The notes below the pieces were generated by a model. That model saw only the letters and a program-made list of their open reading frames with translations, ran no database searches and was not told the DNA's origin. The position numbers and the translations under genes are program-made. A DNA stretch of 64,000 nucleotides from Elusimicrobiota bacterium (GTDB lineage: Bacteria > Elusimicrobiota > Elusimicrobia > UBA1565 > UBA9628). The stretch lies in contig JACRDT010000012.1 of NCBI GenBank assembly GCA_016212795.1, positions 19,975 to 83,974 of the forward strand, read 5' to 3'. Positions 9,807 to 61,844 of this stretch are shown here, in pieces (position 1 is the stretch's first letter; every line of letters starts with the position of its first letter).

Positions 9807-10379
9807 GTGGCGCTGCGCCTGGTCGTCGGCCTGGGCAACCCCGGGCCGCGCTACGCCAGGACGCGACACAACGCGGGCTTCAGGGTCGTGGAGGCCCTGG
9901 CGGGTGCGGAGTCCCGCTGGCGGGACTTCCGGGGTCTCGGGCGTTGCGTCCGGCGGGAGGGGGTCGTGGTGGCCGAACCGCTGACCTACATGAACGACTC
10001 CGGGAGCTTCGTCTCGGCGCTCTGCCGCTTCCACAAGGTCCAGGCGGCCGAGCTGCTGGTGTGCTTCGACGACATCTCCCTGCCCCTGGGGAGGCTCCGG
10101 CTCAAGGCCGCGGGATCGTCCGGCGGCCAGAAGGGCATGGAGTCCATCATCGCGCACCTGGGGACCGCCGCCATCCCGAGGCTGCGCGTGGGGGTGGGGC
10201 CGCTGCCCCCGGGCTGGGAGGCGACCGACTTCGTCCTGGGGCGCTTCGCGGCGGCCGAGGAGACCGTGTTCGCCCGGGCGGTCCTGGACGCCGCCGACGC
10301 GGTGCGCGTCGCCCTCCAAGACGGGCTCGAGGCGGCGATGAACAGATTTAACTCGCCCCCCCCGCGGGGGGGCGAGTAG
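9807..10379 (+). CDS. pth: Peptidyl-tRNA hydrolase
   Basis: LVVGLGNPGPRYARTRHNAGF, MNDSG, CFDDISLPLG motifs; GTG start; the C-terminal ~8 codons run into the G/C hairpin repeat, so the true 3' end may be slightly variable. Confidence 0.85.
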   Translation: MALRLVVGLGNPGPRYARTRHNAGFRVVEALAGAESRWRDFRGLGRCVRREGVVVAEPLTYMNDSGSFVSALCRFHKVQAAELLVCFDDISLPLGRLRLKAAGSSGGQKGMESIIAHLGTAAIPRLRVGVGPLPPGWEATDFVLGRFAAAEETVFARAVLDAADAVRVALQDGLEAAMNRFNSPPPRGGE

Positions 10380-10465
10380 TGGGGGGGCATATTCTGTTTC
10401 ATAAGGAACTCCTTAATAAAACGGCATCGGCCCCCCGCTACTCGCCCCCCGCGGGGGGGCGAGTG
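10352..10465 (+). repeat. Composite ~115-bp imperfect palindrome built from two head-to-head copies of a ~48-bp unit (CGGCATYGG-Cn-GCTACTCG-C7-GCG-G7-CGAGTGA), each containing a C7-GCG-G7 hairpin
   Basis: 10352-10376 hairpin CTCG-C8-GC-G7-CGAG; 10441-10463 hairpin CTCG-C6-GCG-G7-CGAG; the left half is the reverse complement of the unit; central spacer AAGGAACTCCTT is itself palindromic; related copies at 30786-30826 and 49297-49375. Confidence 0.85.
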
Positions 10466-12264: not shown

Positions 12265-13920
12265 ATGACGAGCGAATCCCGCCGCTGGATCGCCGTCAGT
12301 TTCGGCGTCTTCATCGGCGTGGAGATCCTGCTGGGGGTCGTGGTGGCCAAGCTCCTCGTCGGGAGCTTCGTCAGCCATGTCACCGCCCTGAAGCTCGAGC
12401 TCATCCTCGTCCTGTCGAGCTATTTCCTCGGGGGCTACATCGTGGGGTACGTCTCCCCCTCGGTGCGGACCTGGGAGCCGGCCGTCGGGGCGGCGCTCGC
12501 CGTGGCGTTCACCTTCCTCATGGGCTTTTTCTCGCCGCTGTGCTTCTTCGGCTTGGCCCTCCGCAGGGCCGGGGTCGGGGCGGCCATCGCCTTCTGCCTG
12601 GCGCTCGCGGGGGCCAGGCTCGGGGAGAAAGCGGCCGCCAAGCATCTCCGGACGCTCGCCCTGGGCTTGCTTGCCGCGGCCTTCTCCCGCCAGGCGCTGG
12701 CCGCCTCGCCGGAGGCCGACAAGGCCATCCCGCAAGACCGCGCCGTGGCCATCTCCAGCCCGGCGCTGGCCGTCTCGCCGGAGGCCGACAAGGAGATCCC
12801 GCCAAGCCACGCCGTGCCTCTCTCCCTCTCGGCGGAGGCCGACAAGATCATCCTGCAGGGGCTTGACGCGGCCTACGGTTTCGACTTCGAGCGCGCCGCC
12901 TCGTTGTTCGCGGCTGTTTCCCAGGGGGCGCCGGAGCATCCCGCCGGTCCGTTCTTTCTCGCCTCCCTCCATTGGCTGGAGTTCTCCCAGAACGCCGACA
13001 TCCCCGGGACGATCGATGCCCTGGAGCCCAAGTTCAACGAGGTGATGGACGAGGCCTTCAGCCGGGCCAAGAAGATGCATGAGAAGAACCGTGACGACCC
13101 GGAGGCGAACTTCTACCTTGGGGCGGCCTACGGCATGAAGGGCCGCTGGCAGCTCCTCAAGCGGCAGTGGATACGCGCCGCTTCCAACGGCTACAAGGGC
13201 TACAAATACCTCCAGAGGACCATCGAGCTCTATCCTGGGTTCTACGACGCCTATCTTGGCCTCGGGATGTACGATTATTATTCCGACACGCTCCCCACCG
13301 TCCTGAAGTTCGCCGCGAACCTCATCGCCCGCGGCGACAAGCAGCGCGGACTGCGCTACATCGATCTGACCATGGCGAAGGGCCACTACAGCGTCACCGA
13401 GGCGAAGCTCTTCCTCGTCGGGGTCCTGGCCGGCTACGAGAAGCGGCCCCAGAGGGCTCTCGAGATCGTCCAAGAGCTGCGCCACGAGCGGCCCAACAAC
13501 CTTTTCTTCATCTTCATGGAGGTGATTGCCCGCATCAACTCCAAGGACTGGTTCGGGGCCATCGCCTTCGGCGAGTTCCTGATCCCGAGGGTGCGGGAGG
13601 TCCCCTATACGAAGCCGCATGTGAGCCTCTTCGACCTTTACCTCGGGGACGCCTATCTGGGAGCCAAGGACTACGACAGGGCGTTGGAGACCCTCAACCG
13701 CTGCATCGAGCAGGCCCCCGAGCCCCGCAAGGCCACGGTCACTTATTGCCGCCTGCGCATGGCGCAGGCCTTCGACCTGCTGGGGCGCCGGGAAGAGGCG
13801 CTGAAGTGCTACGCGGATGTCAAGCGCCGTCCTGATTTCTTCGACTCCCAAGACAAGGCCAAGCGCGGCCTCAAGCGCCCGCCGACCTACGATGAGGTCG
13901 TCGCGCAGTTCTTCGAGTAA
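12265..13920 (+). CDS. Membrane-anchored protein with short SPEADK(A/E)IP repeats and a C-terminal TPR-like (possibly DUF3808/TTC39-like) domain
   Basis: 4 predicted N-terminal TM helices; repeats ALAASPEADKAIPQD / LAVSPEADKEIPPS / LSAEADKIILQG; TPR-like C-terminus; start ATG 12265 or TTG 12250. Confidence 0.55.
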   Translation: MTSESRRWIAVSFGVFIGVEILLGVVVAKLLVGSFVSHVTALKLELILVLSSYFLGGYIVGYVSPSVRTWEPAVGAALAVAFTFLMGFFSPLCFFGLALRRAGVGAAIAFCLALAGARLGEKAAAKHLRTLALGLLAAAFSRQALAASPEADKAIPQDRAVAISSPALAVSPEADKEIPPSHAVPLSLSAEADKIILQGLDAAYGFDFERAASLFAAVSQGAPEHPAGPFFLASLHWLEFSQNADIPGTIDALEPKFNEVMDEAFSRAKKMHEKNRDDPEANFYLGAAYGMKGRWQLLKRQWIRAASNGYKGYKYLQRTIELYPGFYDAYLGLGMYDYYSDTLPTVLKFAANLIARGDKQRGLRYIDLTMAKGHYSVTEAKLFLVGVLAGYEKRPQRALEIVQELRHERPNNLFFIFMEVIARINSKDWFGAIAFGEFLIPRVREVPYTKPHVSLFDLYLGDAYLGAKDYDRALETLNRCIEQAPEPRKATVTYCRLRMAQAFDLLGRREEALKCYADVKRRPDFFDSQDKAKRGLKRPPTYDEVVAQFFE

Positions 13921-27175: not shown

Positions 27176-27526
27176 TCAGTCCCACATGCGCCTGGTCGGG
27201 ACGCCGAGCGTCCTTTCCGCGATAACGGCGGATATGCGCTTGCGCGGGATCGGCAGCACGACCAGATCGCAATAGAGCGCGTCGAAGAGTTTGCGCAAGG
27301 TGGCGAGCTGCGGCTCGAAATGCCCTTTCTCCATCGACGCCAGGTTTCCCTGGGAGACTCCCGCGCGCCCAGCCAGCTGGCGCTGAGTCATGTGCAGAGC
27401 GACGCGCAGGGTCCGAACCCATTGGCCCGCCTCAAGGCGCACGGCGGCGGGCGGCGCGGCGCCGGCGCATTGGAGCCGGTGCAGGGCTCTCCTGTGAGCG
27501 ATCGTCACGCCGCTGAGCTTGGGCAA
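27176..27526 (-). CDS. XRE-family helix-turn-helix transcriptional regulator
   Basis: HTH LHMTQRQLAGRAGVSQGNLASMEKG; 116 aa. Confidence 0.7.
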   Translation of the reverse strand: MPKLSGVTIAHRRALHRLQCAGAAPPAAVRLEAGQWVRTLRVALHMTQRQLAGRAGVSQGNLASMEKGHFEPQLATLRKLFDALYCDLVVLPIPRKRISAVIAERTLGVPTRRMWD

Positions 27527-27553: not shown

Positions 27554-27573
27554 TGATTCGACATATCGAATCA
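27554..27573. promoter_or_regulatory. Operator-like palindrome TGATTCGA-CATA-TCGAATCA in the XRE promoter region
   Basis: 8-bp inverted arms with 4-bp spacer, 28 nt upstream of the XRE start; second copy at 27756-27775. Confidence 0.5.
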
Positions 27574-27716: not shown

Positions 27717-27755
27717 TAAGCCCCGGAAGGCGTCGTTTGGGTTCCCATGCAGCTA

Positions 27756-27775
27756 TGATTCGACATGTCGAATCA
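27756..27775. promoter_or_regulatory. Second copy of the operator palindrome (perfect: TGATTCGA-CATG-TCGAATCA) within a degenerate duplicated segment
   Basis: About 55-bp segment 27751-27806 is ~85% identical to 27551-27605. Confidence 0.45.
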
Positions 27776-27891
27776 AAACGATATGGACATCAAAGGGGCC
27801 CCCCTTTGAACTCGGCGCCGTTGAGGTCAGTCGGGCCCTGCTTGGAGTCCTGAACGTCCTGTTTGGCAGTAGCGGCGGCGGTCTGATAGCG

Positions 27892-28377: not shown

Positions 28378-28589
28378 TATATCATTCCCCCGGAACCGCG
28401 TAAGAGTCGAAAGCCCCATCCGGCCGTGGGCCTCCGCCATGTATACGAATGAAAGGCCCATTTGGTTCCGCGCGCTGGAATGCCCACGATCTGGCGGTCA
28501 AGAGAAACGCTGCCCGATTCCCGCCTCTGCGTTGTCGAAATAGGATAGAATGAACCACTGACCGGACTCACGCAGGACGGGGTGGCACG

Positions 28590-52095: not shown

Positions 52096-53016
52096 ATGCT
52101 GAGACTCGCCGCGCTCGCCTTGTGCTTTGCCGTCCCCTCGTTCGCGACGCCTGCCGTGCCCGTCCACGACGCCGAGTTCGCCGGGACGGTCGCCAAGATC
52201 GCCTCCGAGGCCAAGGGCCTGGCCGCCGATTTCTTCGCCGCGTCCCATTGGATGCAGGACCGGGAGGTCGTGGCCCTGCTGCGCGACCAGGACCCGCAGG
52301 TGCGCGTCGCGGCCCTGAAGTACGCCCGCTCCATGCCCCTCATCCAGGACGTCGACGTGCGCCGCGAGGTCGGCGCCATGGCCTCCAACGAGCGCGTCCT
52401 CGACGTGCGCCTGGAGGCCGTCAGGACGCTCTACTGGGTGGCGCAGTACAACGACTTCCAGCGCCAGCTCTTCGACCTGGCCCGCCACGACGCGCAGCCG
52501 CGGGTGCGCGCCATGGCCTACAAGGCCCTGCATAGCGCGGCCGCCCACAGCTCGTCGGTGTGGAGGTACATGCTCTACGCGGCCCGCAACGAGAAGAACC
52601 TCGAGGTCCAACAGGCCGTGGCCTGGTCGCTGTTCGAGTGCTCCGGCCAGCCGGACGTGCGTCGGGAGCTCGAGCGAACGGCGTGGAACGCCGGTCTCGA
52701 CGCGGGCCTGCGCCTCGAGGCGGTCAAGAGCCTCTACGGCGCCATGGTGTACAGCGAGATCAGCCGCGGGATGATCCGCCTCGCCTACGACGTCGGCCAG
52801 CCCAAGGATCTGCGCCTGGCCGCCATCCTGGCCCTGAGCGCGGTCACCGGCTCGGAGGTCTCGCGCGCCATCGAGGGCCTGCTGCGCGATCCCGACCCCG
52901 GGATCCGCGCCGCGGCCGTCCAGGCCGCCGGGGGGCTGTCCGAGGAGTTGCGCCGGTTCTTCCACCTCGGGTACAAGCTCAACGACCGGTACGTCAGCCC
53001 CATCGAGAACGAGTAG
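52096..53016 (+). CDS. Secreted HEAT/PBS-lyase-type repeat protein
   Basis: Signal peptide MLRLAALALCFAVPSFA; repeated ..D..VR..A...L.. HEAT-like units (DPQVRVAALKYA, VRLEAVRTLY, QPRVRAMAYKAL, LRLEAVKSLY). Confidence 0.6.
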   Translation: MLRLAALALCFAVPSFATPAVPVHDAEFAGTVAKIASEAKGLAADFFAASHWMQDREVVALLRDQDPQVRVAALKYARSMPLIQDVDVRREVGAMASNERVLDVRLEAVRTLYWVAQYNDFQRQLFDLARHDAQPRVRAMAYKALHSAAAHSSSVWRYMLYAARNEKNLEVQQAVAWSLFECSGQPDVRRELERTAWNAGLDAGLRLEAVKSLYGAMVYSEISRGMIRLAYDVGQPKDLRLAAILALSAVTGSEVSRAIEGLLRDPDPGIRAAAVQAAGGLSEELRRFFHLGYKLNDRYVSPIENE

Positions 53017-53039
53017 GCTCGCCGCCTGAAGGGTCGTCC

Positions 53040-56000
53040 CTACGCCGCCTCAGGCTGGGCTGGCTGGCCGAACACTGCCGCGAGCTCGGCCAGGAGGGCC
53101 TTCATGCCCGGAGGCCTGGCCGAAGGGTCCGCCTTGAGGCATCGGACGACCAGGTCCTTGAGCTTCTCTGGCACGGCGTCGGGCAGGGCGGCGTAGGACT
53201 CCCGCTCTTTGACCTCGCGCAGGCCCTTGCCGGTCAGGAAGGGCAGGTCGCCGGTGAGGAGCTCGTAGGCGGTCACGCCCAGGCTGTAGACGTCGCACGC
53301 GTAGCCCGGCCTGCCCGCGTGCTGCTCGGGCGCCATGTAGGCCGGCGTGCCAGTGGCCTGGGTCTGCTCGAGCCCGACCGCGTCCACGTGCCGGGCGATG
53401 CCGAAGTCCATCATCTTGACCGCTCCCTTGCGGTCCATCATGATGTTGGCGGGCTTGACGTCCAGGTGCGCGACTCCCTTCTCGTGGGCGTGGCCGAGCG
53501 CCTCGCAGGCCAAACTCAGCAGGCGCACGCACTGCCTGGGCTGGAACGCGCCCCGGCAGGCCAGGAGGTCGGCGACGGTCTCGCCGTCGACGTACTCGAA
53601 CACCAGGTAGGTGGACCCCTCGTGCTCGACCGTCTCGTGGAAACCCACGATGCCCGCGTGCTTGAGCTCGGCCAGGGTGGCGGCCTCGTCCAGGAGGAGC
53701 CGCCTGTGCTCGGGGTCCCGGGCGATGCTCTGGCGCAGGCGCTTGAGCGCGACCTCGCGGCCGGTTTGGCGGTCTCTCGCCTTGTACACCAGGCCCATGC
53801 CGCCCACGCCCAGGGGCCTTAGGATCTCGTAGCGGGAGGCCACCATGGCGGCGGCGGGCGGCTCGGTCTCTGGCACGACGGCCCCGGCGGCGGAGGCGGC
53901 CGCGCGGGTGTCCCGCATGGCCATGACCGTGGTCAGATGCGTCAGCTCGTCGGGCGAGATGGCGTCGATGCGCTGGAGCCTGACGTCGGCGTCCTTGTAG
54001 CCTCGCGTCTTCTTGAGGAGCTCCTGGTAGGTCGCCTTGGCCCGCCCGAAATCGCCGTGGCGCTCGCAGAACACGGCCCAGTAGTAGCGCAATTCGGGCG
54101 CGGCCTCGACGGCGATGCGGCTCTGCGCGTCCTGGAACAAAGCCCTGGCCTGTTCGAAGCGGTCCTGCCGCTGGAGGGCTCTCAAGGCGCAGCCGTATTC
54201 GCGGGCGCTCCAGCGGCTCCGGGAGACCTTCTCCAGCGCGTCCATCGCCGGCGCTTCCTTGCCGTCCTCGATGAGCGCCTCGGCGAGGAGGACGCGCTTG
54301 TCCTCGGGCAGCTCGTCGGCGGCCAGCTCCTCCAGGCTCCCGTCCTTGGCGTGCAGGGAGACCAGCAGCCCCCAATCCTCGCCCTCGAGCGCGGGCTTCT
54401 TCTTGAGCAGGACGAGCCCGGCCCCGGCCCGCCCTCGCTGCAGGAACGCCTGGGCATAGCCCGAGTAGAACCCGGGCGGCCGGCCCGTCCCCGCCTGGGC
54501 CGCGAAGTCGTCGGCTTGGCCCGCGTCGTCGAACACCTGGGCCACCAGGTAGGAGTCCGTCTCCGCTTTCCAGGCGGTGTCCACGACGGCGCCCAGGACG
54601 CCAGCGGCCTCCCGGCCGAGCTTGAGCGAGTCGAGCTGGTTGGCGATGCCGAGGCGCTCGCCGTAGGCGACGAACTCGGTGGAGAGCGCCCCGGCCCTGC
54701 GCAGGGAGATGACGCGGTGGAGCACCTTGTAGGCCGCGGCTTCCTTGCCCGTCGGGCGGCAGTCCTTGAGCAGTTCGTGCGCCGCGTCGTAGGCCCCGGC
54801 CCGCAAGAAAGCCATGGCAAAGGCGGCGCGGGCGGGTTCGGCCAGGCCCGAGGCAGTCTGCGGGAAGTCGCGCGACCGGCCGGCCTTGACGTAGTCGAGC
54901 GCCACCCGATCCATCTCCGCCTCGTGGCGCGACGCGGCCGTGAGCTCCGCCTCGGTCCGGGGCCTGAAAGCCGCCGACCCAAGCCGGCCGGTCGAGGAAC
55001 CGGCCGCGGCGGCGGCGAACGGCAGGCTCTCGGGTTCCTTCTCCTGCGGCGGGGCGGCCTTGGACCTGCGGCCCGCCGCCACCCCCACGCCGACCAAGAA
55101 CACGAGCACGATGACCCCGGCGACCAGCCAGATCAGGTTCTCCCGGCGCTGTTCGGCCTGCTTGCGGGACTGCTCTCGAAGGGATTCCAGCTTCTCCACG
55201 ACGGTCGGCAGGTCGAGGGCCTTTTGGGCGGCTTCGACCTCCACGATCGCGGCCTGGAGATCCTCCTTGTCCTCGAACCCCTGGGCGACGGCCAGGCGGC
55301 GCTCATATTCTGCAATCCTGCCCAGCATCGCCTTGGCTTCGGCGCGCAGGTCGCCTCCGGCCCGGGATCGGCCGTCCAGCGCTTTCTTGATGGTCTCCTT
55401 CGCTTCCGCCAGCCGGCCTGTCGTCGCCAGGCACAGGCCCCGGTAGTCGTTCCAGACCGCGTCCGGCCTTGAGGAGAGCACGACGTCGAAGTCGGCCATC
55501 GCCGCCGCGTGCTCGCCCTGGTGGTATTTCGCGGCCCCGAGCAGGTTCCTGATCCCGGCGTCCGACGGGTCGAGCTGTGCCGCCCTGTCGAGGATGAGAT
55601 GGGCCAGCTTCGGGTCGGTCTTCACCAGCGGGCCGGCTCTGGCCAGGAGCGCGGCGGCCGTGGTTCGGCGGTACTGCTGGTTATCGGGCGAGAGCTCGAC
55701 GGCCTTGTTGAGGGAGTCGATGGCCTGCTCGACGTCGCCCTGGGCGAGCAAGCGCTCCCCGTCCTTGAAATGGCCGGCGGCCGCGGTCTCGGTGCCGGCC
55801 CGGAGGGCGGCCCTGGCGGCGTCGCGGTGCTCGGCCGCCTCGGAGACGGCGGGATTGAGCTCGAGGGCCTTGTCGTAATCCTTGATCGCGCGCTCGTACT
55901 GCCTGAGGCCTGCGTAGGCGAACCCGCGATTAGCGAAGGCAAGGGCGAGACGAGGGTCGAGTTCGATGGCTTTATCAAAATCCCGGATCGCGCGATCGTA

Positions 56001-56768
56001 TTGCTTAAGGCTGGCGTAGTGGAAGCCGCGGTTGTTGTGGGGCATGGCAAGATTCGGTTGGAGTAGGATGACCTTGTCGTCATCCTGTATTGCGCGGTCG
56101 TATTGGCCGAGGACACCGTAGAGTATGCCGCGGTTCTGGTAGGCATCGACATAGTCCGGCTTGAGTTTGATGGCCGTGTCCAAATCTTGAATCGCGCGGT
56201 TGTATCGTTTGAGTTCGATGTTGACTGTGGCGCGCACAAGGAAGACATTACTCATGGTATCGGAATTCATGCGCGACTTTTTCGACAACAGGATGGCTTT
56301 GTCGAGGTCTTGTGTTGCCCGATTATATTGCTTGAGGCTGGCGTAAGTGACACCGCGACTGGCGTAGGCCTCGGCGAAATTCGCATTGAGTTCGATGGCC
56401 GTGTCCAAGTCCTGTATCGCCGGATCGAATTGGTTGAGGCTGGCATAGTTGGCGCCGCGCTTCATGTGAGCCCAGGCCTTGTAATACACCTCGTCCTCGG
56501 GGGTCCACTGCGCCAGCGCCTTGGTGTAGAGCTGAATCTTTTCGGCGGGGTTCGCGGCCTCTTCGCCCGCGTTGAACAGGTCGCGGAAGCCGCTAGGGTT
56601 GGCCGCGGGGGCCGCGGCGCTGGAGCTCAGCGAGCGGCCTCCCAGCTTGGGGGTACTCCAGCGGCGCTCCTCGGCTCTCGCGGATGGGACCATGGCCAGG
56701 ACGAGCGCGAGGGCCGCGAGCCGGCGCGCCGAGGGTCTAGTCATCGGGAGTCGCCATCCCGCCAGCAT
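53040..56768 (-). CDS. Receptor-type Ser/Thr protein kinase: signal peptide, periplasmic TPR array, single TM, cytoplasmic TPR-like region and C-terminal kinase domain
   Basis: TPR repeats with AIQDLDTAIELNANFAEAYASRG consensus; TM IWLVAGVIVLVFLVGVGVAAG; kinase motifs GVGGMGLVYKA..VALKRL, HLDVKPANIMMD (non-RD), DFGIAR, APE; start ATG 56768 or 56744. Confidence 0.8.
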   Translation of the reverse strand: MLAGWRLPMTRPSARRLAALALVLAMVPSARAEERRWSTPKLGGRSLSSSAAAPAANPSGFRDLFNAGEEAANPAEKIQLYTKALAQWTPEDEVYYKAWAHMKRGANYASLNQFDPAIQDLDTAIELNANFAEAYASRGVTYASLKQYNRATQDLDKAILLSKKSRMNSDTMSNVFLVRATVNIELKRYNRAIQDLDTAIKLKPDYVDAYQNRGILYGVLGQYDRAIQDDDKVILLQPNLAMPHNNRGFHYASLKQYDRAIRDFDKAIELDPRLALAFANRGFAYAGLRQYERAIKDYDKALELNPAVSEAAEHRDAARAALRAGTETAAAGHFKDGERLLAQGDVEQAIDSLNKAVELSPDNQQYRRTTAAALLARAGPLVKTDPKLAHLILDRAAQLDPSDAGIRNLLGAAKYHQGEHAAAMADFDVVLSSRPDAVWNDYRGLCLATTGRLAEAKETIKKALDGRSRAGGDLRAEAKAMLGRIAEYERRLAVAQGFEDKEDLQAAIVEVEAAQKALDLPTVVEKLESLREQSRKQAEQRRENLIWLVAGVIVLVFLVGVGVAAGRRSKAAPPQEKEPESLPFAAAAAGSSTGRLGSAAFRPRTEAELTAASRHEAEMDRVALDYVKAGRSRDFPQTASGLAEPARAAFAMAFLRAGAYDAAHELLKDCRPTGKEAAAYKVLHRVISLRRAGALSTEFVAYGERLGIANQLDSLKLGREAAGVLGAVVDTAWKAETDSYLVAQVFDDAGQADDFAAQAGTGRPPGFYSGYAQAFLQRGRAGAGLVLLKKKPALEGEDWGLLVSLHAKDGSLEELAADELPEDKRVLLAEALIEDGKEAPAMDALEKVSRSRWSAREYGCALRALQRQDRFEQARALFQDAQSRIAVEAAPELRYYWAVFCERHGDFGRAKATYQELLKKTRGYKDADVRLQRIDAISPDELTHLTTVMAMRDTRAAASAAGAVVPETEPPAAAMVASRYEILRPLGVGGMGLVYKARDRQTGREVALKRLRQSIARDPEHRRLLLDEAATLAELKHAGIVGFHETVEHEGSTYLVFEYVDGETVADLLACRGAFQPRQCVRLLSLACEALGHAHEKGVAHLDVKPANIMMDRKGAVKMMDFGIARHVDAVGLEQTQATGTPAYMAPEQHAGRPGYACDVYSLGVTAYELLTGDLPFLTGKGLREVKERESYAALPDAVPEKLKDLVVRCLKADPSARPPGMKALLAELAAVFGQPAQPEAA

Positions 56769-56890
56769 TATACCCCGCCCTTGGCCGGCCAGCAAGGCCG
56801 CTGGCTGGCATATGTTCTGGCCGGCGGAAGCCGTCCGGCGATCAGAAAGGTTCGGGTGGAACTTTCTTGCCGCCTCGATCGTATGCATAG

Positions 56891-58111
56891 GTGGGCGCTG
56901 ATCCCAGGCTGAAAGGAGGTCCCTTGGACTTGCTTGCGAGCAGTGTCGCCGTGCCAGACGATGGGGAGTTATCCACCGAACTTTCCCGGGAAAGTCCGGT
57001 GGATAAGTCGCCTGGCCGACAGCTTGTCGTTCCAGGCGCGATCCCCGCGGACCTCTCCGGCTTGGATGATTCGGAGGTTCTCCGGTGGGTCCGAACGTTC
57101 GCGGTTCGAGAGAGGCGCGCGACGGTCGCCTTGCTCGCGGTCCTGGGCGAGGTGGAGCGGCGGGGCCTTCACCTCCGGGAGGGTTATGCATCGCTTTTCA
57201 TGTTCTGCGTGAAGGACTTGCGCCACTCGGAGGGCGCCGCCTACAAGAGGGTCCACGCGGCCCGGGCGGGAAGGCGGTTCCCCGAGATATACTCGCTGCT
57301 TCGCGACGGAGCTCTGTCGCTCAGCGCGGTGGCCATGCTCGAGCCGCATCTGACGCCCGAGAATAAGGACATGCTGCTGACCCGAAGTCAGGGTCTCGGC
57401 AAGAGGCAGCTCGAGATGGTCATCGTCGGCATGGCGCCCCGGCCGGAAACGCGGGATGCCGTGCGGAGGCTGGACGTCGCTGCAGGCGCGACGGCGGCGG
57501 AGCACCCTCGGCTGTCTACGGGCGCGTCCGTTGGGGCGGCTCAGGCGGAACTTGGCGGCGGGAATGGAAGCTCGCTGGAGGGGCTGTCATGCCAGCCTTT
57601 GGGGCTATCAGGTTCCAGCCCGGACCATTCCCTGGCGCGCATCCAGCCGCTTTCTCCGGGTCGGGTCAAGTTCAGCTTCACGGGCAGCTCGGAGCTGCTT
57701 GAAATGGTCGAACGGGCGCGGGACCTGCTCAGGCACAAGCATCCGGAGGGGGGGCTTGCGAACGTCTTTGCGGAACTGGCTCGATTCTACCTGGACAGGA
57801 AAGATCCAAGCCGCAAGGTGCGCGCGGGTCGCGCACGACCGCGGGGGAGGAAGTCCGGTGGGAACGCCCGGCGCATCCCGGAGGCCGTCAAGCGCGAGGC
57901 ATGGACGCGCGACCAGGGGCGCTGCGCGTACGTCTCGCCTTCGGGCCGCAGGTGCGGGGCGGCGGCTTGGCTCGAGTACGATCACATCAGGCCATGGGCG
58001 CTCGGCGGGAGGTCGGATGACGGGGGGAACATCCGGCTTCTATGTCGGGCGCACAATCAGTGGGAGGCGCGAGCGCGATTCGGGGAGGGGCGCTTCAAGA
58101 GGCGGGGGTAG
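56891..58111 (+). CDS. DUF222-family protein with C-terminal HNH endonuclease domain (13E12-repeat-family-like)
   Basis: HNH motif CAYVSPSGRRCGAAAWLEYDHIRPWALGGRSDDGGNIRLLCRAHN; N-terminal DUF222-like region; third codon positions visibly less GC-biased than in neighbouring genes; true start uncertain (GTG 56891, or GTG 56996 inside the palindrome). Confidence 0.6.
   Translation: MGADPRLKGGPLDLLASSVAVPDDGELSTELSRESPVDKSPGRQLVVPGAIPADLSGLDDSEVLRWVRTFAVRERRATVALLAVLGEVERRGLHLREGYASLFMFCVKDLRHSEGAAYKRVHAARAGRRFPEIYSLLRDGALSLSAVAMLEPHLTPENKDMLLTRSQGLGKRQLEMVIVGMAPRPETRDAVRRLDVAAGATAAEHPRLSTGASVGAAQAELGGGNGSSLEGLSCQPLGLSGSSPDHSLARIQPLSPGRVKFSFTGSSELLEMVERARDLLRHKHPEGGLANVFAELARFYLDRKDPSRKVRAGRARPRGRKSGGNARRIPEAVKREAWTRDQGRCAYVSPSGRRCGAAAWLEYDHIRPWALGGRSDDGGNIRLLCRAHNQWEARARFGEGRFKRRG
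56970..57005. promoter_or_regulatory. 36-bp imperfect palindrome TATCCACCGAACTTTCCC|GGGAAAGTCCGGTGGATA in the divergent region between the kinase gene and the HNH gene
   Basis: 18-bp arms with 2 symmetric mismatches; both strands therefore encode the mirror peptide YPP(D/N)FPGKVRWI in the spurious ORFs. Confidence 0.6.
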
Positions 58112-58226
58112 CCATAGGCCTGTCCCAGCGGGTCCGGGCGGCGGCCGCGGGACTGTCGGCCGCGTGTCTTGATCGGTCTTGACCGGCGGGCTTTTCCGGG
58201 CAGGGCCCAAATGGTACCATGGGCCG

Positions 58227-58964
58227 ATGGCCAGGCCGGGGTTCAGGGCTCAGATGGACGCGCTCATCGGCCGCAACATCGCCATCCATTTCGGGGCGGC
58301 CGGCACCCTGCTCCTCATGGTCGCGCAGGCCCCCATCATCGGCTACTTCATCGGCCTGGGCTGGAAGGGCCAGGAGGCCGTCCCGCAGACCTACTTCATC
58401 ATGTCCGTGGCGGCGCTGTGGATGGGCTGCATGAACGCCTGCACCTCCATCGTGGTCGAGCGGCAGGTCTACCTGAGGGAGCGCATGTTCGACCTGAACA
58501 TCTGGTCCTACCTGTTCTCCAAGATGAGCGTGCTGGCGGTCGTGGGCGGCCTCCAGAGCCTCCTTCTGCTGGCGACGCAGGGCCGCTTCATGCATCTGAA
58601 GAGCTCCGTGCTCGCCCAACTGCTCTTCTTCGTCAGCCTTTCCATGACCGGCCTGGCCGCGGGCGCGTTGGGGCTGCTCATCTCGTCTTTGGCCAGGACG
58701 TCCTACGGGGCCGTGGTGGCGGTGCCCATCGTGCTGCTGCCGCAGGCCATCTTCACCGAGGTCCTGCTGGGGGAGAACGTCAAGAACGCCGTTCCGGCCG
58801 TCATCGAGAAGCTGACCCTCACCAAGTGGTGCTACCAGGCGCTCATGGACGTCCACCAGGGCGTCCATGTCCTCGACCAGGCCAAGAGCCTGGCCGCCCT
58901 CGCCTTGGCCCTCGGGCTGTTCCTCGCCCTGGCGGCCGGCAAGCTCAAGCTGGAGGAGAGTTGA
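58227..58964 (+). CDS. ABC-2 type transporter permease
   Basis: 6 TM helices; ABC-2 family signature region (..LYLRERMFDLNIWSYLFSKMSV..). Confidence 0.6.
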   Translation: MARPGFRAQMDALIGRNIAIHFGAAGTLLLMVAQAPIIGYFIGLGWKGQEAVPQTYFIMSVAALWMGCMNACTSIVVERQVYLRERMFDLNIWSYLFSKMSVLAVVGGLQSLLLLATQGRFMHLKSSVLAQLLFFVSLSMTGLAAGALGLLISSLARTSYGAVVAVPIVLLPQAIFTEVLLGENVKNAVPAVIEKLTLTKWCYQALMDVHQGVHVLDQAKSLAALALALGLFLALAAGKLKLEES

Positions 58965-59419
58965 TGAAGAGGCTGTTCGCCATCGTCGTCGTGCTGGCCG
59001 CCGGGACCGGGGCCGCCTTCCTCATGTCCGAGGGCTACGTGCCGGGCTGGCCGAGCGACAAGGCGGCCATCAGGCAGAAGTCCGTGCGCTTCCTCGAGTG
59101 CCTGAAGTTCAAGAACTTCGAGGAGGCGGCCGTGTTCCATACGCCGGCCGAGCTCAAGGACCACCCGAACATCCCCAAGCAGCTCGAGAGCTTCTTCAAG
59201 ATCCCGCACGAGAACCTGGACATCCAGGACATCAACATCGACTTCATGGAGTTCGACTCGACCGGAGCTCGCGCCAAGGTCAAGACCACCACGGGCGTCC
59301 ACGTCCTCAACAGCAAGGAGGACCGGCGGGTGGAGGCGATGATCTATTGGAAGAAGGTGGACGGGCAGTGGTTCATGGACCTGCGGACCACGCTTGAGCG
59401 CGGCGCCGGCGGGCTTTGA
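58964..59419 (+). CDS. Small secreted protein (151 aa), hypothetical
   Basis: Signal peptide MKRLFAIVVVLAAGTGAAF; start overlaps permease stop (TGATG). Confidence 0.5.
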   Translation: MKRLFAIVVVLAAGTGAAFLMSEGYVPGWPSDKAAIRQKSVRFLECLKFKNFEEAAVFHTPAELKDHPNIPKQLESFFKIPHENLDIQDINIDFMEFDSTGARAKVKTTTGVHVLNSKEDRRVEAMIYWKKVDGQWFMDLRTTLERGAGGL

Positions 59420-59541
59420 GTTTGCGAGCGCAGCGAGCGAACCACCCGCTGTAAGCGCCCTCGAAATGGCCGTTTTGTCCCCAACGCAACGGCCGGTCCC
59501 CCGCAGGGGACCGGCCGTTGCGCGTGGCCTTCGGCCCCGCG

Positions 59542-60543
59542 CTACAAGCCCTTCCAGAGCGCCTGGCCCTTGAGGGTCGAGAGGACGGACTCGGGCGCTC
59601 CCAGCGACTTGACCGCGGCGCCGGCCACCGGCTTGCCGAGCATGTCCTCCGGCAGGTCCGCGGCGACGGGCGGCTTGTACCAGCACAGGGGCCTGGTCCC
59701 CAGCTTGTCGCCGGCGCTGGCGTTGCAGGTCCCTGGGACCGGGTCCTTGTCGCTGACTTCCTGCGAGAGGGGCTTGTCGCACAGCGAGCCCTGGAAGTAG
59801 GTGTCGAGGCGGCACTGGGTCTTGGGGTGCTTCTCGTACATGGTGGACACCACGGACGGGTCGGGCGTCTCGAACTTGTACTCCTTCTCGTCGTTGCCCA
59901 AGGCCTTGAACAGGGCGGTGACGGACTTGCCCGCCATGGAGCCCCTCAGGCAGAGGGCGCGGTCCTTGCCGCCGGCGAAGGTGTCGTCGCAGTACTTCTC
60001 GGCGTATGGGTCCGCCGCCAGCTTGGGCCGGCTGAACTTGGCGGCGGCGACGTCGGCGAAGACCCGGCGGAGGCACTTGAGGTTGGCGGCGTAATCGGCC
60101 TGGCCCTCGATCGTGGCCCAGGAGCCGAACCAGCCCGACGATTTCGGGGCGCCGCCCAGGTGGTGGGACATCTCGTGGCAGGCCACCAGGGTGAAGCCGT
60201 CCTGCGTGATGGCGGCGTGGCGGGCGAGCCCGCCGAACATCGAGATGATGTACTTGTTGCCCTGCTGCTGGGCGTAGGCGTTGACCGTGCCGTCGTCCCA
60301 CTTGCGCTCGATGCTGAGGACGGCGCCGCGGGCCGCCACGATGGGTTTGTAGATCTTCTCGACGGCGTCGAGCACGGCGTTGAACTGGGACTGGTCGATG
60401 CCTTTGTCGTCCTTGGACCCGGCCAGGATGACCATGTCGTTCTCCGGCAGGAAGCCTGGACAGACGTCGACGGCGGGCTGGCGGACGGCGGCGCCGCCGA
60501 AGACGAGCGCGGCGATCAGGGACATCAGGACGGATCGCGTCAT
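59542..60543 (-). CDS. Secreted cysteine-rich putative zinc metallopeptidase (HExxH)
   Basis: Signal peptide MTRSVLMSLIAALVFGGAAV; HEMSHHLGG zincin motif; GGAGG Shine-Dalgarno 8 nt upstream; 10 Cys residues. Confidence 0.55.
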   Translation of the reverse strand: MTRSVLMSLIAALVFGGAAVRQPAVDVCPGFLPENDMVILAGSKDDKGIDQSQFNAVLDAVEKIYKPIVAARGAVLSIERKWDDGTVNAYAQQQGNKYIISMFGGLARHAAITQDGFTLVACHEMSHHLGGAPKSSGWFGSWATIEGQADYAANLKCLRRVFADVAAAKFSRPKLAADPYAEKYCDDTFAGGKDRALCLRGSMAGKSVTALFKALGNDEKEYKFETPDPSVVSTMYEKHPKTQCRLDTYFQGSLCDKPLSQEVSDKDPVPGTCNASAGDKLGTRPLCWYKPPVAADLPEDMLGKPVAGAAVKSLGAPESVLSTLKGQALWKGL

Positions 60544-60563
60544 GGGTGCACCTCCGAGGCTAT

Positions 60564-61844
60564 TCATTTTCCCATCTCCACGAGATAGGCGACGGCGACT
60601 TTGGCGAACTTGAAAGCGTGCAGGGAGTTCCCTCCCGACTGGGCGAGGGTGTCGTTGGCCGTATGGATGTTCGGGTTGTCCTCGTCGAACTTGGCTTCGA
60701 AGGGGAGGGAGGCGCTGTAGCCGTTCCTGGTCCAGGAGGCGTGGTCCGAGCACGCGTAGCCGCACTTGGTCGTCCCGACGCGGTAGTCGGTGTAGGCCGC
60801 GATGAGCTTGCCCAGGAAGGCGTTCTGGGCCTCGCTGACGTTGTCGGCGATCAGGTAGATGTCGTCGGCCGACCCTCTGTAGTTGGTCATGTCGAACTGG
60901 AGGACTCCCTGGACGGCGACGCCGTTCTGCTTGAAGTTGTCGGCGATCTCCCGGGAGCCCCGCAAGCCGGCCTCTTCCGCGGCGTAGGCGATGAACTTGA
61001 CCGTGGACCCGGGCTTGTAGCCGGAGGCCACGATGACCCTCGCGGACTCGGTGAGGACGGCGATCCCCGAGGCGTCGTCGTCCGCGCCGGGCGCGACGTT
61101 GTCGCCGCCCCCCCAGCCGGCGATGGAATCCAGGTGGCCGCCCAGGACCACGACCTTCCCGGGCTCGGCTTTCCCGCGGACCGTCAGGATCACCGACTCC
61201 TGGGCCCAGCCGCCGTGGCGGAAGAGCTCGACCGTGATGTCCGGCCTGCCCTTCGAGAGCTCCTGCCAGTAGTCCCGCAGCCATCGGGCGGAGGCCGCGC
61301 CCGTCTCCGAGCGGTAGTACCGGTTCTTGAACGCGGCAAGGCGTTTGATCGTCTCCGTGATGGCGGCCTCGTCCACGAGCTTGAGCATGGGCACGACGGT
61401 CTCCCGCTGGTCGATCTCGTAGGCCCGAGCCATGGCGAGGGGCGGCTCGGCCATGTCGGCTTTGGCGGCCCGCAGGGTCGGATGCGCGAAGAACCCTCCG
61501 CACTTGCGGAGCCGATGGTGCATGATGTCCGAGAGGGCGTCGAGCTCGGCCACCGTGACCTCGAAGATGGAGACCAGGCTGTTCTGGCTGACGGGGACGC
61601 GCCGGGAGAAGTCGAATTCCCCTTTCAGCGCGGCCACGTCGGCGTTGGAGACGCTGATCCAGACGGCATCGTCGGCGCGCTCCGGCGACGATGCCAGGCG
61701 CCGGCCCGTCATGCCCGCGGCTTCTCGGGCGGTCGCGATGGCGGGGCGGACGTCCACCCCCTGGTCGAACCCGGCGTCGGGCGCGGCCGAAGACGTGGCC
61801 GCGGCCATGAAAGTCAATACGAGGAACGTCCGAAGTCCGCCCAT
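60564..61844 (-). CDS. Secreted M28-family aminopeptidase
   Basis: M28 metal-ligand motifs GGHLDS, DDDASG, EEAGLRGS, CSDH; signal peptide MGGLRTFLVLTFMAAATSSA. Confidence 0.8.
   Translation of the reverse strand: MGGLRTFLVLTFMAAATSSAAPDAGFDQGVDVRPAIATAREAAGMTGRRLASSPERADDAVWISVSNADVAALKGEFDFSRRVPVSQNSLVSIFEVTVAELDALSDIMHHRLRKCGGFFAHPTLRAAKADMAEPPLAMARAYEIDQRETVVPMLKLVDEAAITETIKRLAAFKNRYYRSETGAASARWLRDYWQELSKGRPDITVELFRHGGWAQESVILTVRGKAEPGKVVVLGGHLDSIAGWGGGDNVAPGADDDASGIAVLTESARVIVASGYKPGSTVKFIAYAAEEAGLRGSREIADNFKQNGVAVQGVLQFDMTNYRGSADDIYLIADNVSEAQNAFLGKLIAAYTDYRVGTTKCGYACSDHASWTRNGYSASLPFEAKFDEDNPNIHTANDTLAQSGGNSLHAFKFAKVAVAYLVEMGK

Follow-up and report, generated by a model that had tools for sequence, protein, structure and literature searches.

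A recurrent palindrome accompanies a family of HNH nuclease genes across several bacterial phyla and is probably recognised by the enzyme

An HNH nuclease gene at the edge of an operon-splitting insertion

The stretch of DNA analysed here (the window, 64 kb) contains on its forward strand a gene for an HNH nuclease, annotated by NCBI at 56,924–58,111, with alternative starts at GTG 56,891 and GTG 56,999. The gene forms the right edge of a 6,245-bp lineage-specific insert (51,982–58,226), which, by junction alignment, extends from the stop codon of an ABC-transporter ATPase gene to the start codon of a permease gene. The ATPase on the left flank (51,190–51,981, forward strand; Pfam ABC_tran) is 65–70% identical in amino acids to its counterparts immediately upstream of the permease in seven relatives; the right flank (58,227–59,419, forward strand) encodes the ABC-2 permease (58,227–58,964; Pfam ABC2_membrane) and a 150-residue partner, p150 (58,964–59,419), with 68–75% identity to relatives. 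As further cargo the insert carries a HEAT-repeat protein gene (52,057–53,016, forward strand; Pfam HEAT_2/HEAT), with a GC content at third codon positions (GC3) of 0.96, and, on the reverse strand and divergent from the HNH gene, a gene for a protein with a signal peptide, TPR, a transmembrane segment and a Ser/Thr kinase domain (53,040–56,744; Pfam Pkinase and TPR), whose GC3 is 0.89 overall and 0.68–0.74 in codons 100–300.

ATPase, permease and p150 are contiguous in the seven related Elusimicrobia; the ATPase gene ends where the permease gene starts in these relatives (L098–L107), with overlapping or abutting stop and start codons, and the HEAT, kinase and HNH genes are absent within ±8 kb. 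Judged by this comparison of sequences, the HNH gene is not ancestral at the window locus and arrived within the 6.2-kb insertion, so that the presence/absence comparison proposed in the initial annotation comes out in favour of a gain, the polymorphic unit being the three-gene insert as a whole. Terminal direct or inverted repeats and target duplications were not found at its ends.

The nuclease and its domains

The longest form of the HNH ORF (56,891–58,111, forward strand) starts at a GTG and encodes 406 residues; the NCBI-annotated protein (P0001) starts at TTG 56,924 and has 395. A Shine-Dalgarno-like AAAGGAGG (56,912–56,919, forward strand), read from the sequence, precedes this TTG and a second one at 56,930. 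Residues 1–55 are not conserved among relatives and are predicted to be disordered.

The C-terminal part (57,866–58,090) is an HNH nuclease domain of the beta-beta-alpha-Me type with a CCCH zinc site. It scores 21.7 bits against Pfam PF01844 (HNH; gathering cut-off 21.4), all 23 aligned relatives match this profile as well, and the motif C345..C355..E362-Y-D364-H365..N380..C385-R-A-H388-N389 is invariant across them; the canonical HNH motif seen initially is thus borne out, with catalytic and zinc residues intact. Foldseek gives weak matches of the domain to McrA and colicin DNases, and a weak top match of the full-length model to EcoKMcrA; some sources annotate members of the family as McrA. 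Like free-standing HNH homing and type IV McrA-like enzymes, the protein joins a beta-beta-alpha-Me nuclease to a DNA-binding module that sits apart from it at the N-terminus. Unlike these, it has no McrA-type N-terminal domain and no phage, intron or intein context, and no family in the PADLOC anti-phage defence models matched at E≤0.01. An RNA-guided IscB/OMEGA nuclease was considered and rejected, as the NCBIfam score is 14.2 bits against a cut-off of 175 and the similarity is confined to the HNH segment. The omega RNA that such a nuclease needs, besides RuvC and PLMP domains, did not appear either: Rfam yielded nothing at E<0.1 in 54,000–61,000, where the one match, to the CC2171 sRNA (59,341–59,517), is at chance level (E 0.14; 22 bits, gathering score 75), and in 12 related loci it yielded two tRNAs and nothing else. 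A Y1 HUH catalytic domain (IS200/IS605 TnpA-like) was likewise rejected, Pfam giving HNH and DUF222 only.

The N-terminal domain (57,056–57,478; residues about 56–196) is all-helical in its model (pLDDT 94). As to the DUF222-like N-terminus noted initially, 11 of 23 relatives match PF02720 at E<0.01 (best 3.7e-7), but the window protein itself scores 18.4 bits, below the cut-off of 24.4, over profile positions 8–88 of 306; it appears from these profile scores to be a distant DUF222 relative rather than a clear member. The model resembles ParB/Noc DNA-binding domains most, if weakly: the top Foldseek neighbours are Spo0J-parS, ParB, Noc-NBS, SopB and VirB (TM 0.4–0.6, E 1.8–9), and neither Pfam nor the PDB gives a sequence-level match to a ParB-type domain. 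The two domains are joined by a low-complexity linker (residues 198–253; 57,482–57,649), which has pLDDT<50 and is variable in the alignment; in the Eisenbacteria clade the equivalent linker carries a palindrome.

The A/T richness at third codon positions noted initially is confirmed. The ORF as a whole has a GC3 of 0.78; its conserved part alone reaches 0.80, its N-terminal extension 0.64. The gene falls outside the distribution of the 39 other called window genes (mean 0.931, sd 0.048, minimum 0.81) as the lowest in the window, at z about −3, with the caveat that the TPR part of the adjoining kinase is likewise low (0.68–0.74). Low GC3 characterises the family at large (57 of 65 loci) rather than marking a recent transfer. 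The closest relatives of the protein are from Elusimicrobia (38–46% identity), so the taxonomic profile speaks against the acquisition from another phylum that had been suggested; no near-identical copy was found among 5.8 billion proteins.

Promoters and palindrome at the window locus

Upstream of the HNH gene, GGAACTTT-N14-CGTA (56,858–56,883, forward strand) has the −35 and −10 elements expected of an ECF-type promoter, would place the transcription start at about 56,890, and is conserved as a motif in relatives. ECF promoters have a −35 element containing AAC and a −10 element containing CGT, 16–17 nt apart. The pattern GGAACTTT-N9-14-CGTA has this one match in the window, with 0.00 expected, and GGAAC-N16-18-CGTA precedes 28 of 34 homologues of the Elusimicrobia clade (clade A) in sense orientation, an enrichment of about 500-fold over far flanks; the elusimicrobial members of the family thus share what looks, from this motif, like a dedicated ECF-sigma promoter. 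The Acidobacteria and Eisenbacteria clades have only two short motifs in common in the upstream ~200 nt, and no alignable RNA. The kinase gene probably has a sigma-70-type promoter of its own, which we read as TTGCTG-17 nt-TATAAT (56,767–56,795, reverse strand).

The palindrome was first described as 36 bp, TATCCACCGAACTTTCCCGGGAAAGTCCGGTGGATA (56,970–57,005), at or just before the 5' end of the gene. It extends to 38 bp (56,969–57,006), without a loop, in 19-bp arms with one mismatch, and consists of outer TTATCCAC arms around an inner core of ACTTTCCC and GGGAAAGT. It falls within the delimited ORF: the annotated TTG is 45 nt ahead of it, the first residue that relatives conserve follows about 45 nt after it, and the alternative start GTG 56,999 sits within it. 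The distance to the kinase ATG (56,744) is 225 bp, in line with the ~200 bp given initially. The further idea of an operator shared with the kinase promoter finds no support in the layout: seen from the palindrome, the putative kinase promoter lies beyond the HNH promoter, and the palindrome itself is downstream of the HNH promoter.

Searching the 64-kb window for a second copy of the palindrome returned none (0.03 chance matches expected), and the best local alignments for extra half-sites near the promoter or a decayed 3' copy fall within the null distribution or close to it. One exact match of 11 nt, at 57,851–57,861, is in the top 0.5%.

A palindrome class tied to the gene family

Of 81 homologous loci, 49 carry loopless palindromes of 20–42 bp (core AAC-N5-CCGG-N5-GTT) next to the gene or within it, an enrichment of about 60-fold, and the window palindrome belongs to this class. 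Palindromes of the form xAC-N14-GTx occur at 0.70 per kb next to the homologues, 0.23 per kb inside them and 0.011 per kb in far flanks; an unfiltered palindrome scan gives 0.94 per kb near the homologues against 0.24 per kb far from them. About 40% of the family loci have no detectable perfect palindrome, as do half of the promoter-bearing Elusimicrobia loci. The 60 instances found represent 41 distinct sequences with a conserved outer AAC(T); 35 of the 41 have CG at the centre and none has GC. The outer AAC and the central CCGG are retained across phyla; the middles of the arms vary, yet stay strictly symmetric.

Both the position of the palindrome (5', linker or 3') and its outer motif track the protein tree. 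Arms of the TTATCCAC type are found only in the subclade of the window locus, L002, L004, L009 and L013; in other clades the palindrome is in the linker or 3' of the gene. Gene-internal palindromes always fall into the disordered linker and share one reading frame by descent. Those 3' of the gene occur in all three frames, so the constraint is on the nucleic acid; an explanation at the level of the peptide was rejected for this reason. Where two palindromes flank one gene, they are identical (L016, L019, L030, L035, L044, L046), and L108 and L186 have the gene likewise bracketed by identical copies. The two HNH copies of a single MAG (ERP119705_co15_213), L005 and L044, carry different palindromes.

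In metagenomes, 33 of 86 instances of AACTCGGTCCGGACCGAGTT lie beside or inside a gene of the family. At least ten solo copies of the same 20-mer occupy short intergenic spacers beside unrelated genes; they fill spacers of 30–50 nt inside operons without a 5' bias. At L137 two palindrome copies flank a toxin-antitoxin module. The density of solo copies is about 1 per 100–200 kb, as estimated from 700 kb of flanks.

By these comparisons across loci, the association between gene and palindrome is family-wide and clade-specific, and it looks cognate. The link between palindrome and HNH gene made at the single locus is thereby extended to a companion across the family; further copies, a search for which had been proposed, turned up for the palindrome class, which recurs beside family genes, and not, within the 64 kb, for the window sequence itself. 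We did not find this association described in the literature searched.

Genomic setting of the family

The branch of the family to which the window protein belongs comprises 8,725 clusters at 50% identity (E≤1e-30). Across 80 loci no conserved partner gene was found; the only recurrent neighbour, uvrA, beside which and divergent from which the HNH gene stays stably in 8–9 other Elusimicrobia species, is confined to one syntenic group and represents a single evolutionary event. Plasmid, phage and viral collections hold no full-length relative, and matches in IMG/VR cover the HNH domain only. Some MAGs have several copies of the gene, many of them on short contigs or at contig ends. In the pair L057/L061 the HNH genes are 65.6% identical and their flanks 83–84%, with sharp boundaries.

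A candidate stress-induced nuclease with a probable DNA site of its own

We tentatively read the locus, with a probability of roughly 0.4, as a nuclease cassette induced by stress, with the palindrome serving as the site that its protein binds or cleaves. The gene is predicted to encode an active, site-specific HNH nuclease. It would be one of very many related chromosomal cassettes that stand alone, are composed of promoter, palindrome and ORF, and have the mycobacterial 13E12/DUF222 HNH proteins as distant relatives, with the 38-bp palindrome as the cassette's own cis-acting site. The ParB/Noc-like helical domain probably recognises the palindrome, which would be either a symmetric site bound by a dimer or DNA extruded into a hairpin or cruciform, and we infer that this recognition positions the HNH domain to nick or cut there. 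Because the palindrome lies downstream of the promoter and over a candidate start codon, binding, or folding of an RNA hairpin, would also throttle expression of the gene itself, a putative autoregulation. Production of the nuclease would be limited to a particular stress by the dedicated ECF-sigma-type promoter and its presumed sigma factor. The cassette reached its position through the lineage-specific 6.2-kb insertion that splits the ABC-transporter operon, an event in which the nuclease may have taken part.

Comparison with ParB-parS and Noc-NBS (and SopB, VirB and KorB) lends this some plausibility, as these are the best structural neighbours of the N-terminal domain and have sites scattered in the chromosome. 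ParB/Noc-type proteins can also have sites within or adjacent to the gene that encodes them. Such proteins bind palindromes of 14–16 bp as dimers, and the window core, ACTTTCCC and GGGAAAGT, agrees with the Noc site (NBS consensus), TATTTCCC and GGGAAATA, at 12 of 16 positions, which may be coincidental (PMC7383237). Unlike them, the window protein has no CTPase/ParB N-terminal domain, carries its domain fused to a nuclease, and gives no significant sequence or profile match, with Foldseek E-values above 1. Against an own-site reading count the family loci without a detectable perfect palindrome, the single copy in the window and its lack of a flanking partner. The symmetric variable middles of the arms fit base pairing in a hairpin at least as well as contacts of a dimer on duplex DNA, binding of a host factor would explain the solo copies beside unrelated genes just as well, and an intact cleavage site within the nuclease's own locus would need protection or tight control.

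In a wider form, which we consider doubtful, DUF222-like HNH proteins at large would be a class of palindrome-specific nucleases, the HNH counterpart of REP/RAYT with a ParB/Noc-type DNA-binding domain, co-evolving with their palindromes lineage by lineage and acting through stress-induced nicking and rearrangement. If so, each lineage would keep 1–2 copies of a perfect palindrome of 20–40 bp in or beside its own gene, further copies would be seeded or maintained in intergenic spacers, nicking induced by the sigma factor would promote local recombination, insertion and rearrangement, for example the operon-splitting insert, and the 13E12/DUF222 superfamily would gain a defined DNA substrate.

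Weighing the alternatives

The bracketing of the gene by identical palindromes, the solo copies in intergenic spacers and around the toxin-antitoxin module, the several gene copies in some MAGs, often at contig ends or on short contigs, and the symmetric variation of the arms, which suits hairpin recognition, would also be expected if the palindromes were mobile or mobilisable hairpins, REP/RAYT-like or IS-like, that the HNH protein nicks and spreads together with the bracketed cassette; solo copies would then be progeny or recombination scars. The family resembles REP/RAYT systems in a single- or low-copy, vertically kept nuclease gene that is bracketed, in several homologues, by its own class of short palindromes, in the extra solo copies (for the clade-C palindrome, in metagenomes), and in having its own palindrome sequence in each gene lineage. 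We nevertheless regard this as unlikely: the catalytic domain is HNH rather than that of a Y1/HUH transposase, the palindromes are perfect, loopless and in some clades inside the ORF, and their copy number appears low, given the sparse solo copies in the flanks and the single palindrome in 64 kb. The gene is moreover kept beside uvrA, and at the window locus the insert has no target duplications or terminal repeats and the gene no near-identical copies.

Quite unlikely, in our view, is that the palindrome is an operator at which a host stress regulator (LexA, DnaA or another) represses a nuclease induced by DNA damage or replication stress. The precedent is the mycobacterial 13E12/REP13E12 family, which has the same order of a helical DUF222-type N-terminal region and a C-terminal HNH domain, forms stand-alone chromosomal genes with several copies in some genomes, and has been linked to genome rearrangement (PMC13157036); most 13E12 genes of M. 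tuberculosis are bound by LexA at palindromic SOS boxes, some intragenic, and are induced by damage (PMC3381160). Palindrome and promoter are within ~240 nt of each other in Elusimicrobia; in L016 the palindrome overlaps both the −10 element and the start codon, at the window locus the start codon. The orthologous locus and uvrA are divergent, and the DnaA-box consensus is matched by the TTATCCAC(A) outer arms of the window locus, L002, L004, L009 and L013. The window protein differs from 13E12 proteins in scoring below the DUF222 cut-off and matching the first third of the profile only, in its ECF-type promoter, in its host phylum, and in a palindrome of the AAC-N5-CCGG-N5-GTT type with TTATCCAC arms instead of TCGAAC-N4-GTTCGA; the latter, the mycobacterial SOS box, occurs with up to two mismatches 3 times in 64 kb (2.25 expected) and never near the gene. 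A single global regulator would not tolerate the different palindromes at the two HNH copies of one MAG, and the linker and 3' positions in other clades, as well as the solo copies inside operons, do not suit an operator.

An element acting purely at the RNA level, a hairpin in the leader or first codons (elsewhere 3') that governs translation, termination or mRNA stability with no protein partner, we judge improbable. The hairpin is stable (−18.6 kcal/mol as DNA and −31.5 kcal/mol as RNA; z −5 to −6, and −5 for the RNA) and would sequester GTG 56,999; in the predicted leader fold the Shine-Dalgarno sequence pairs with 57,049–57,058, and the palindrome abuts or overlaps the start codon in L002, L004 and L016. 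The sole mismatched pair is, however, A.C on the plus strand and G.T on the minus strand, so that only the antisense RNA would form a G.U pair. Conservation of the outer AAC and central CCGG across phyla argues for sequence-specific recognition, the palindromes upstream of the promoter in L005, L013, L014, L044 and L057 would not be transcribed with the gene, and solo copies occur elsewhere in the genomes.

A classical free-standing homing endonuclease, recently acquired across phyla and with the palindrome as target or insertion scar, much as the initial annotation proposed, is very improbable: presence here and absence at the same locus in relatives, low GC3 and faster divergence than in the flanks (L057/L061) would fit, but the insert carries two native-looking cargo genes, the empty sites hold no palindrome and, with their stop and start codons overlapping, could not accommodate one, leaving no evidence of a cognate target in HNH-free alleles, there is no intron, intein, terminal repeat, near-identical copy or full-length relative in plasmid, phage or viral collections, the best relatives are of the same phylum, the promoter is conserved and of host type, and the gene is stable beside uvrA.

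Implications

Genes of the DUF222/13E12-HNH type number in the thousands; in M. tuberculosis they sit at inversion breakpoints. New here are the operon-splitting insert, the palindrome as a hallmark of the family, and the shared ECF-sigma-like promoter. The locus records an insertion that is clean and datable and divides an operon exactly between a stop and a start codon, and the dedicated stress promoter, if read correctly, offers a handle on regulation. A conserved, lineage-specific palindrome that travels with the gene is a concrete candidate substrate: its type recurs with this gene family in several bacterial phyla, which makes the palindrome the probable recognition site of the enzyme itself.

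The HNH gene and its family

The HNH gene is a single long ORF on the forward strand (56891-58111; 406 aa counted from GTG), for which the public annotation of the window DNA (P0001) takes TTG 56924 as the start, giving 395 aa. The nuclease motif recognised in the initial annotation is borne out: residues C345, C355, E362, D364-H365, N380, C385 and H388-N389 are invariant in an alignment of the window protein with 22 relatives, HNH is matched by all 23 aligned sequences in a profile search, and the window protein lies marginally over the Pfam cut-off for HNH (21.7 against 21.4 bits). A DUF222-like N-terminus was proposed along with it: 11 of the 23 aligned sequences match DUF222 at E<0.01, but the window protein itself stays under the Pfam cut-off (18.4 against 24.4 bits), its match covering positions 8-88 of the 306-position profile. 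The DUF222-type HNH genes are a known, uncharacterised kind, of which this gene is a new and distant member. Its family comprises 8,725 clusters (50% identity, E<=1e-30); the best relatives of the window protein are from Elusimicrobia, at 38-46% identity, and no close relative was found, the next best standing at 46%. Other members occur in Vicinamibacterales and further Acidobacteriota, Eisenbacteria, Armatimonadota, Polyangiaceae and Thermodesulfobacteriota; plasmid, phage and viral collections yielded no full-length member, and the PADLOC defence models no match.

In the full-length structural model, residues 58-195 (helical), residues 254-311 and the HNH domain are confident, and disorder is predicted for residues 1-55 and 198-253; modelled as a lone domain, residues 56-196 reach a pLDDT of 94. 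The closest structural neighbours of this N-domain model are ParB-family DNA-binding domains (Spo0J-parS, ParB, Noc-NBS, SopB, VirB), with TM-scores of 0.4-0.6 and E-values of 1.8-9; a ParB-like N-domain, as suggested by the model, is a lead, not a demonstration. A PDB sequence search with the window protein gave matches at the HNH level only.

The atypical codon usage is confirmed: no other called gene in the window has a GC3 as low as that of this ORF (0.78; conserved part, 0.80), the 39 others having a mean of 0.931 (sd 0.048, minimum 0.81). In 57 of 65 loci across the family, the HNH gene has a lower GC3 than the genes that flank it, and in 38 of these it is the lowest; as judged from composition, the reduced GC3 is a family trait rather than a mark of recent foreign origin. 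Acquisition across phyla is unsupported, since the best relatives are Elusimicrobia and the drop in GC3 is typical of the family. The TPR part of the divergent Ser-Thr kinase gene (53040-56744, reverse strand) is likewise low in GC3: codons about 100-300 (55800-56600), which encode the TPR repeats, have a GC of 0.52-0.59 and a GC3 of 0.68-0.74, at a genome GC of 69%, and the same part contains a 143-nt internal repeat (55897-56039 and 56326-56468, 72% identity).

An insertion in an ABC transporter operon

Downstream of the HNH gene lie, on the same strand, an ABC-2 permease gene (58227-58964) and a gene for a 150-aa protein. The permease has orthologues of 65-75% identity in seven other Elusimicrobia (loci L098-L107), and in all seven the ABC ATPase gene is immediately 5' of it, its stop codon overlapping or abutting the permease start; in the window, the ATPase gene (51190-51981, forward) is found 6.2 kb upstream. 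In the junction alignment, homology stops at the ATPase stop codon and restarts at the permease ATG, which places a 6,245-bp segment (51982-58226) precisely at the boundary of the two genes. The segment comprises a HEAT-repeat protein gene (forward, GC3 0.96), the TPR/Ser-Thr kinase gene (reverse, GC3 0.89) and the HNH gene (forward, GC3 0.78-0.80), the last of these at its right edge and 115 nt short of the permease start. None of the three is found within ±8 kb of the ABC operon in the relatives, and no repeats are common to both ends of the insert. The HNH gene is thus missing from the junction in seven relatives, and the insertion, as read from the alignments, is lineage-specific; that the nuclease caused it does not follow from this absence.

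Elsewhere in the family the gene can be stable: eight or nine Elusimicrobia species share one syntenic HNH locus, divergent from uvrA, so that long vertical inheritance is possible; no conserved neighbour besides uvrA was found. Several MAGs have two or three copies, many copies are on short contigs, and the HNH gene is less conserved in DNA identity than its flanks (65.6% vs 83-84% between L057 and L061, 86% vs 94% between L005 and L006). Of the mobility originally suggested, the absence at the locus in relatives stands, but a classical homing element is not supported, and the uvrA locus is stable.

Several further features were seen around the operon. The S1-domain gene that lies directly 3' of it in L101, L103 and L107 has its homologue at 2-841 of the window, 58 kb away, so that further rearrangement has taken place in the window lineage. 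In L099 (9260-10393), a Hint/intein-type gene (Hom_end_hint) and a RelB/ParE toxin-antitoxin pair follow the ABC locus; in that species, cargo resembling that of mobile elements thus adjoins the operon. In the window, the operon and the next gene converge on a 38-nt GC-rich hairpin (59485-59522; CGCAACGGCCGGTCCCC-CGCA-GGGGACCGGCCGTTGCG), probably a bidirectional terminator.

Promoter and start region

A promoter motif, GGAACTTTCTTGCCGCCTCGATCGTA (56858-56883, forward), precedes the HNH starts. Of 34 Elusimicrobia-clade loci, 28 have its general form, GGAAC-N16-18-CGTA (usually GGGAACTTTTT...CGTA), in sense orientation and no more than 260 nt from the conserved start; 334 kb of far-flank DNA contain just 4 matches, so that the motif is enriched about 500-fold at the gene. 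With TTT, it is unique in the window. AAC in the -35 and CGT in the -10 element at such spacing are hallmarks of ECF-sigma promoters, and the gene therefore appears to belong to a specific alternative-sigma regulon. A weaker second instance (GGAACCAAATGGGCCTTTCATTCGTA; 28444-28469, reverse) precedes an ORF of low GC3 (0.81) for a 180-aa coiled-coil (apolipoprotein-like) protein; this ORF may be in the same regulon. Clades outside Elusimicrobia have other conserved upstream motifs. Acidobacteria and Eisenbacteria clades (L021, L032, L035, L048, L052, L075, L078 and others) show two, at -190 to -260 from the start, about 150-190 nt apart with unconserved DNA between them: a TTGACA box between ATTTC/TTTC repeats, and TCGAAAAC-N4-5-GTGnTAnAAT, followed directly by either a leaderless ATG or a roughly 45-nt leader.

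The promoter motif is followed by AAAGGAGG (56912-56919), TTG 56924, TTG 56930 and the palindrome, whose right arm contains a further possible start, GTG 56999, in the context GTG-GAT-AAG. In the close relatives L002 and L004, GTG-GAT-AAC directly after the palindrome reads into the conserved N-terminus, and in L016 an ATG is situated in the right arm. Relatives start about 4-8 residues ahead of the conserved LSDxxL motif, which aligns with window residue 55; residues 1-55 are thus an unconserved extension, of predicted disorder and a GC3 of just 0.64. Codons 56924, 56930 and 56999 are all candidate starts; whichever is used, the promoter motif precedes the palindrome, which is thus probably co-transcribed with the gene.

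The palindrome as a hallmark of the family

The near-perfect palindrome reported at the gene is real: it spans 56970-57005, or 38 bp at its full extent (56969-57006), has a single mismatched pair, and is unique, no second copy being found in the 64-kb window (0.03 expected). It had been placed at or just before the 5' end; it does belong to the 5' region, but lies inside the delimited ORF. The folding energy of its single strand is -18.6 kcal/mol for DNA and -31.5 kcal/mol for RNA (z -5 to -6). An 11-nt exact copy of the right arm (AAGTCCGGTGG) occurs within the HNH ORF, just ahead of the nuclease domain (57851-57861), and ranks among the top 0.5% when compared with a null for local alignments. 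The window contains other repeats. Upstream of a Cro/C1-type HTH gene (27176-27526, reverse), the palindrome (T)TGATTCGACATGTCGAATCA occurs twice (27554-27573 and 27754-27777), both times within a stretch of about 50 nt that is itself duplicated, and the two copies have the look of a local operator pair. About 114 nt at 10351-10464 are self-complementary (blastn, 81% identity between the stretch and its reverse complement) and form a long, imperfect inverted repeat; tandem direct repeats lie in coding regions at 2040-2167 (68 nt, 97% identity, period 60) and 12673-12841 (about 100 nt, 81% identity, period 69).

Loopless perfect palindromes, scanned in 80 related loci, adjoin many homologues. 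Those with arms of at least 10 nt, taken without a sequence filter, reach 0.94/kb near the gene vs 0.24/kb elsewhere; the form xAC-N14-GTx reaches 0.70/kb beside the gene, 0.23/kb within it and 0.011/kb in the far flanks, and is present at least once in 49 of 81 loci. The 60 instances represent 41 distinct 20-mers with conserved outer AAC(T) and a central CG in 35 (GC in none; CCGG, in 25, being commonest); the positions between are variable yet symmetric. The inner part of the window palindrome, GAACTTTCC|CGGGAAAGTyC, fits this class, each arm being one base under the norm; its extra outer TTATCCAC arms are found only in the nearest protein relatives (L002, L004, L009, L013), 65-fold enriched near their genes. 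ParB-family proteins (Spo0J, ParB, Noc, SopB, VirB) bind palindromes as symmetric dimers, and the window core, which is absent from all other fetched loci, is like the Noc site TATTTCCC|GGGAAATA at 12 of 16 positions (PMC7383237).

Placement tracks the protein tree: palindromes lie in the 5' region in Elusimicrobia, in the disordered interdomain linker in the Eisenbacteria clade, and just 3' of the HNH domain in the Vicinamibacteria-type clade, where it is frequently accompanied by another copy about 250-270 nt upstream. Linker copies keep a single reading frame, fitting common descent; 3' copies occur in any frame, so that the constraint acts on the nucleic acid. The two palindromes around one gene are identical (L016, L019, L030, L035, L044, L046), and two HNH copies of one MAG (L005, L044) have differing ones. 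At 0.3-1.7 kb upstream of HNH genes in Elusimicrobia there are also long perfect palindromes of unrelated sequence, one of 40 bp (L005, 5026-5065) and one of 43 bp (L044, 406-448), the former being kept in L006 and situated at the edge of an indel.

When the commonest clade-C palindrome, AACTCGGTCCGGACCGAGTT, was used to query JGI metagenomes, at least 120 stretches matched. Among the matches listed, 80 loci with 86 instances were examined: 33 have an HNH-family gene beside or around them, 10 have none despite flanks of at least 1.3 kb on each side, and the rest have one or both flanks too short to classify. AACTCGGTCCGGACCGAGTT is thus strongly but not exclusively tied to the family. The solo copies among these matches occupy short intergenic spacers by unrelated genes, free of 5'/3' bias; on one contig (L137, 1728-3905), which has no HNH gene, two of them stand on either side of a segment with a MazE/MazF-like toxin-antitoxin pair and a gene for an ADP-ribosylglycohydrolase.

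What the palindrome is for

The best-supported reading of these sequence patterns is that the HNH gene is a self-contained, stress-induced nuclease cassette and that the palindrome is the cognate site of the cassette itself. The palindrome would be bound by the N-terminal domain and acted on by the HNH domain; given its place at the window locus, binding or folding of the RNA would also hold down HNH expression. The cassette's own protein is favoured over a global host regulator because palindromes differ between two copies of one MAG, are co-inherited with the protein tree, and enrich for HNH genes when searched for first.

Gene-linked plus solo palindromes resemble REP elements with their RAYT genes, or alternatively the dispersed sites at which a site-specific protein binds DNA. 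A REP/RAYT-like mechanism is kept alive by the variable, strictly symmetric arm interior, which fits hairpin or cruciform recognition at least as well as duplex binding. For the Elusimicrobia clade, a host regulator acting at the palindrome, or an explanation through RNA only, is possible. Relative to the clade promoter, the palindrome lies 48-236 nt upstream or 14-86 nt downstream, leaders that contain it being correspondingly longer, and a perfect one is missing in about half of the promoter-bearing loci. In M. tuberculosis, LexA is bound at palindromic SOS boxes of most genes of 13E12, the mycobacterial DUF222-HNH repeat family (PMC3381160); the window HNH gene has no SOS box of the mycobacterial type. 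An operator shared with the kinase, as once suggested, is unlikely, because the probable kinase promoter (TTGCTG-17-TATAAT, about 56767-56795, reverse, as read from sequence) and the palindrome are on opposite sides of the HNH promoter.

In the literature searched, no description was found of the gene-palindrome association, the dedicated promoter or the solo copies. The link between HNH gene and palindrome gives a testable candidate substrate for a long-enigmatic family.
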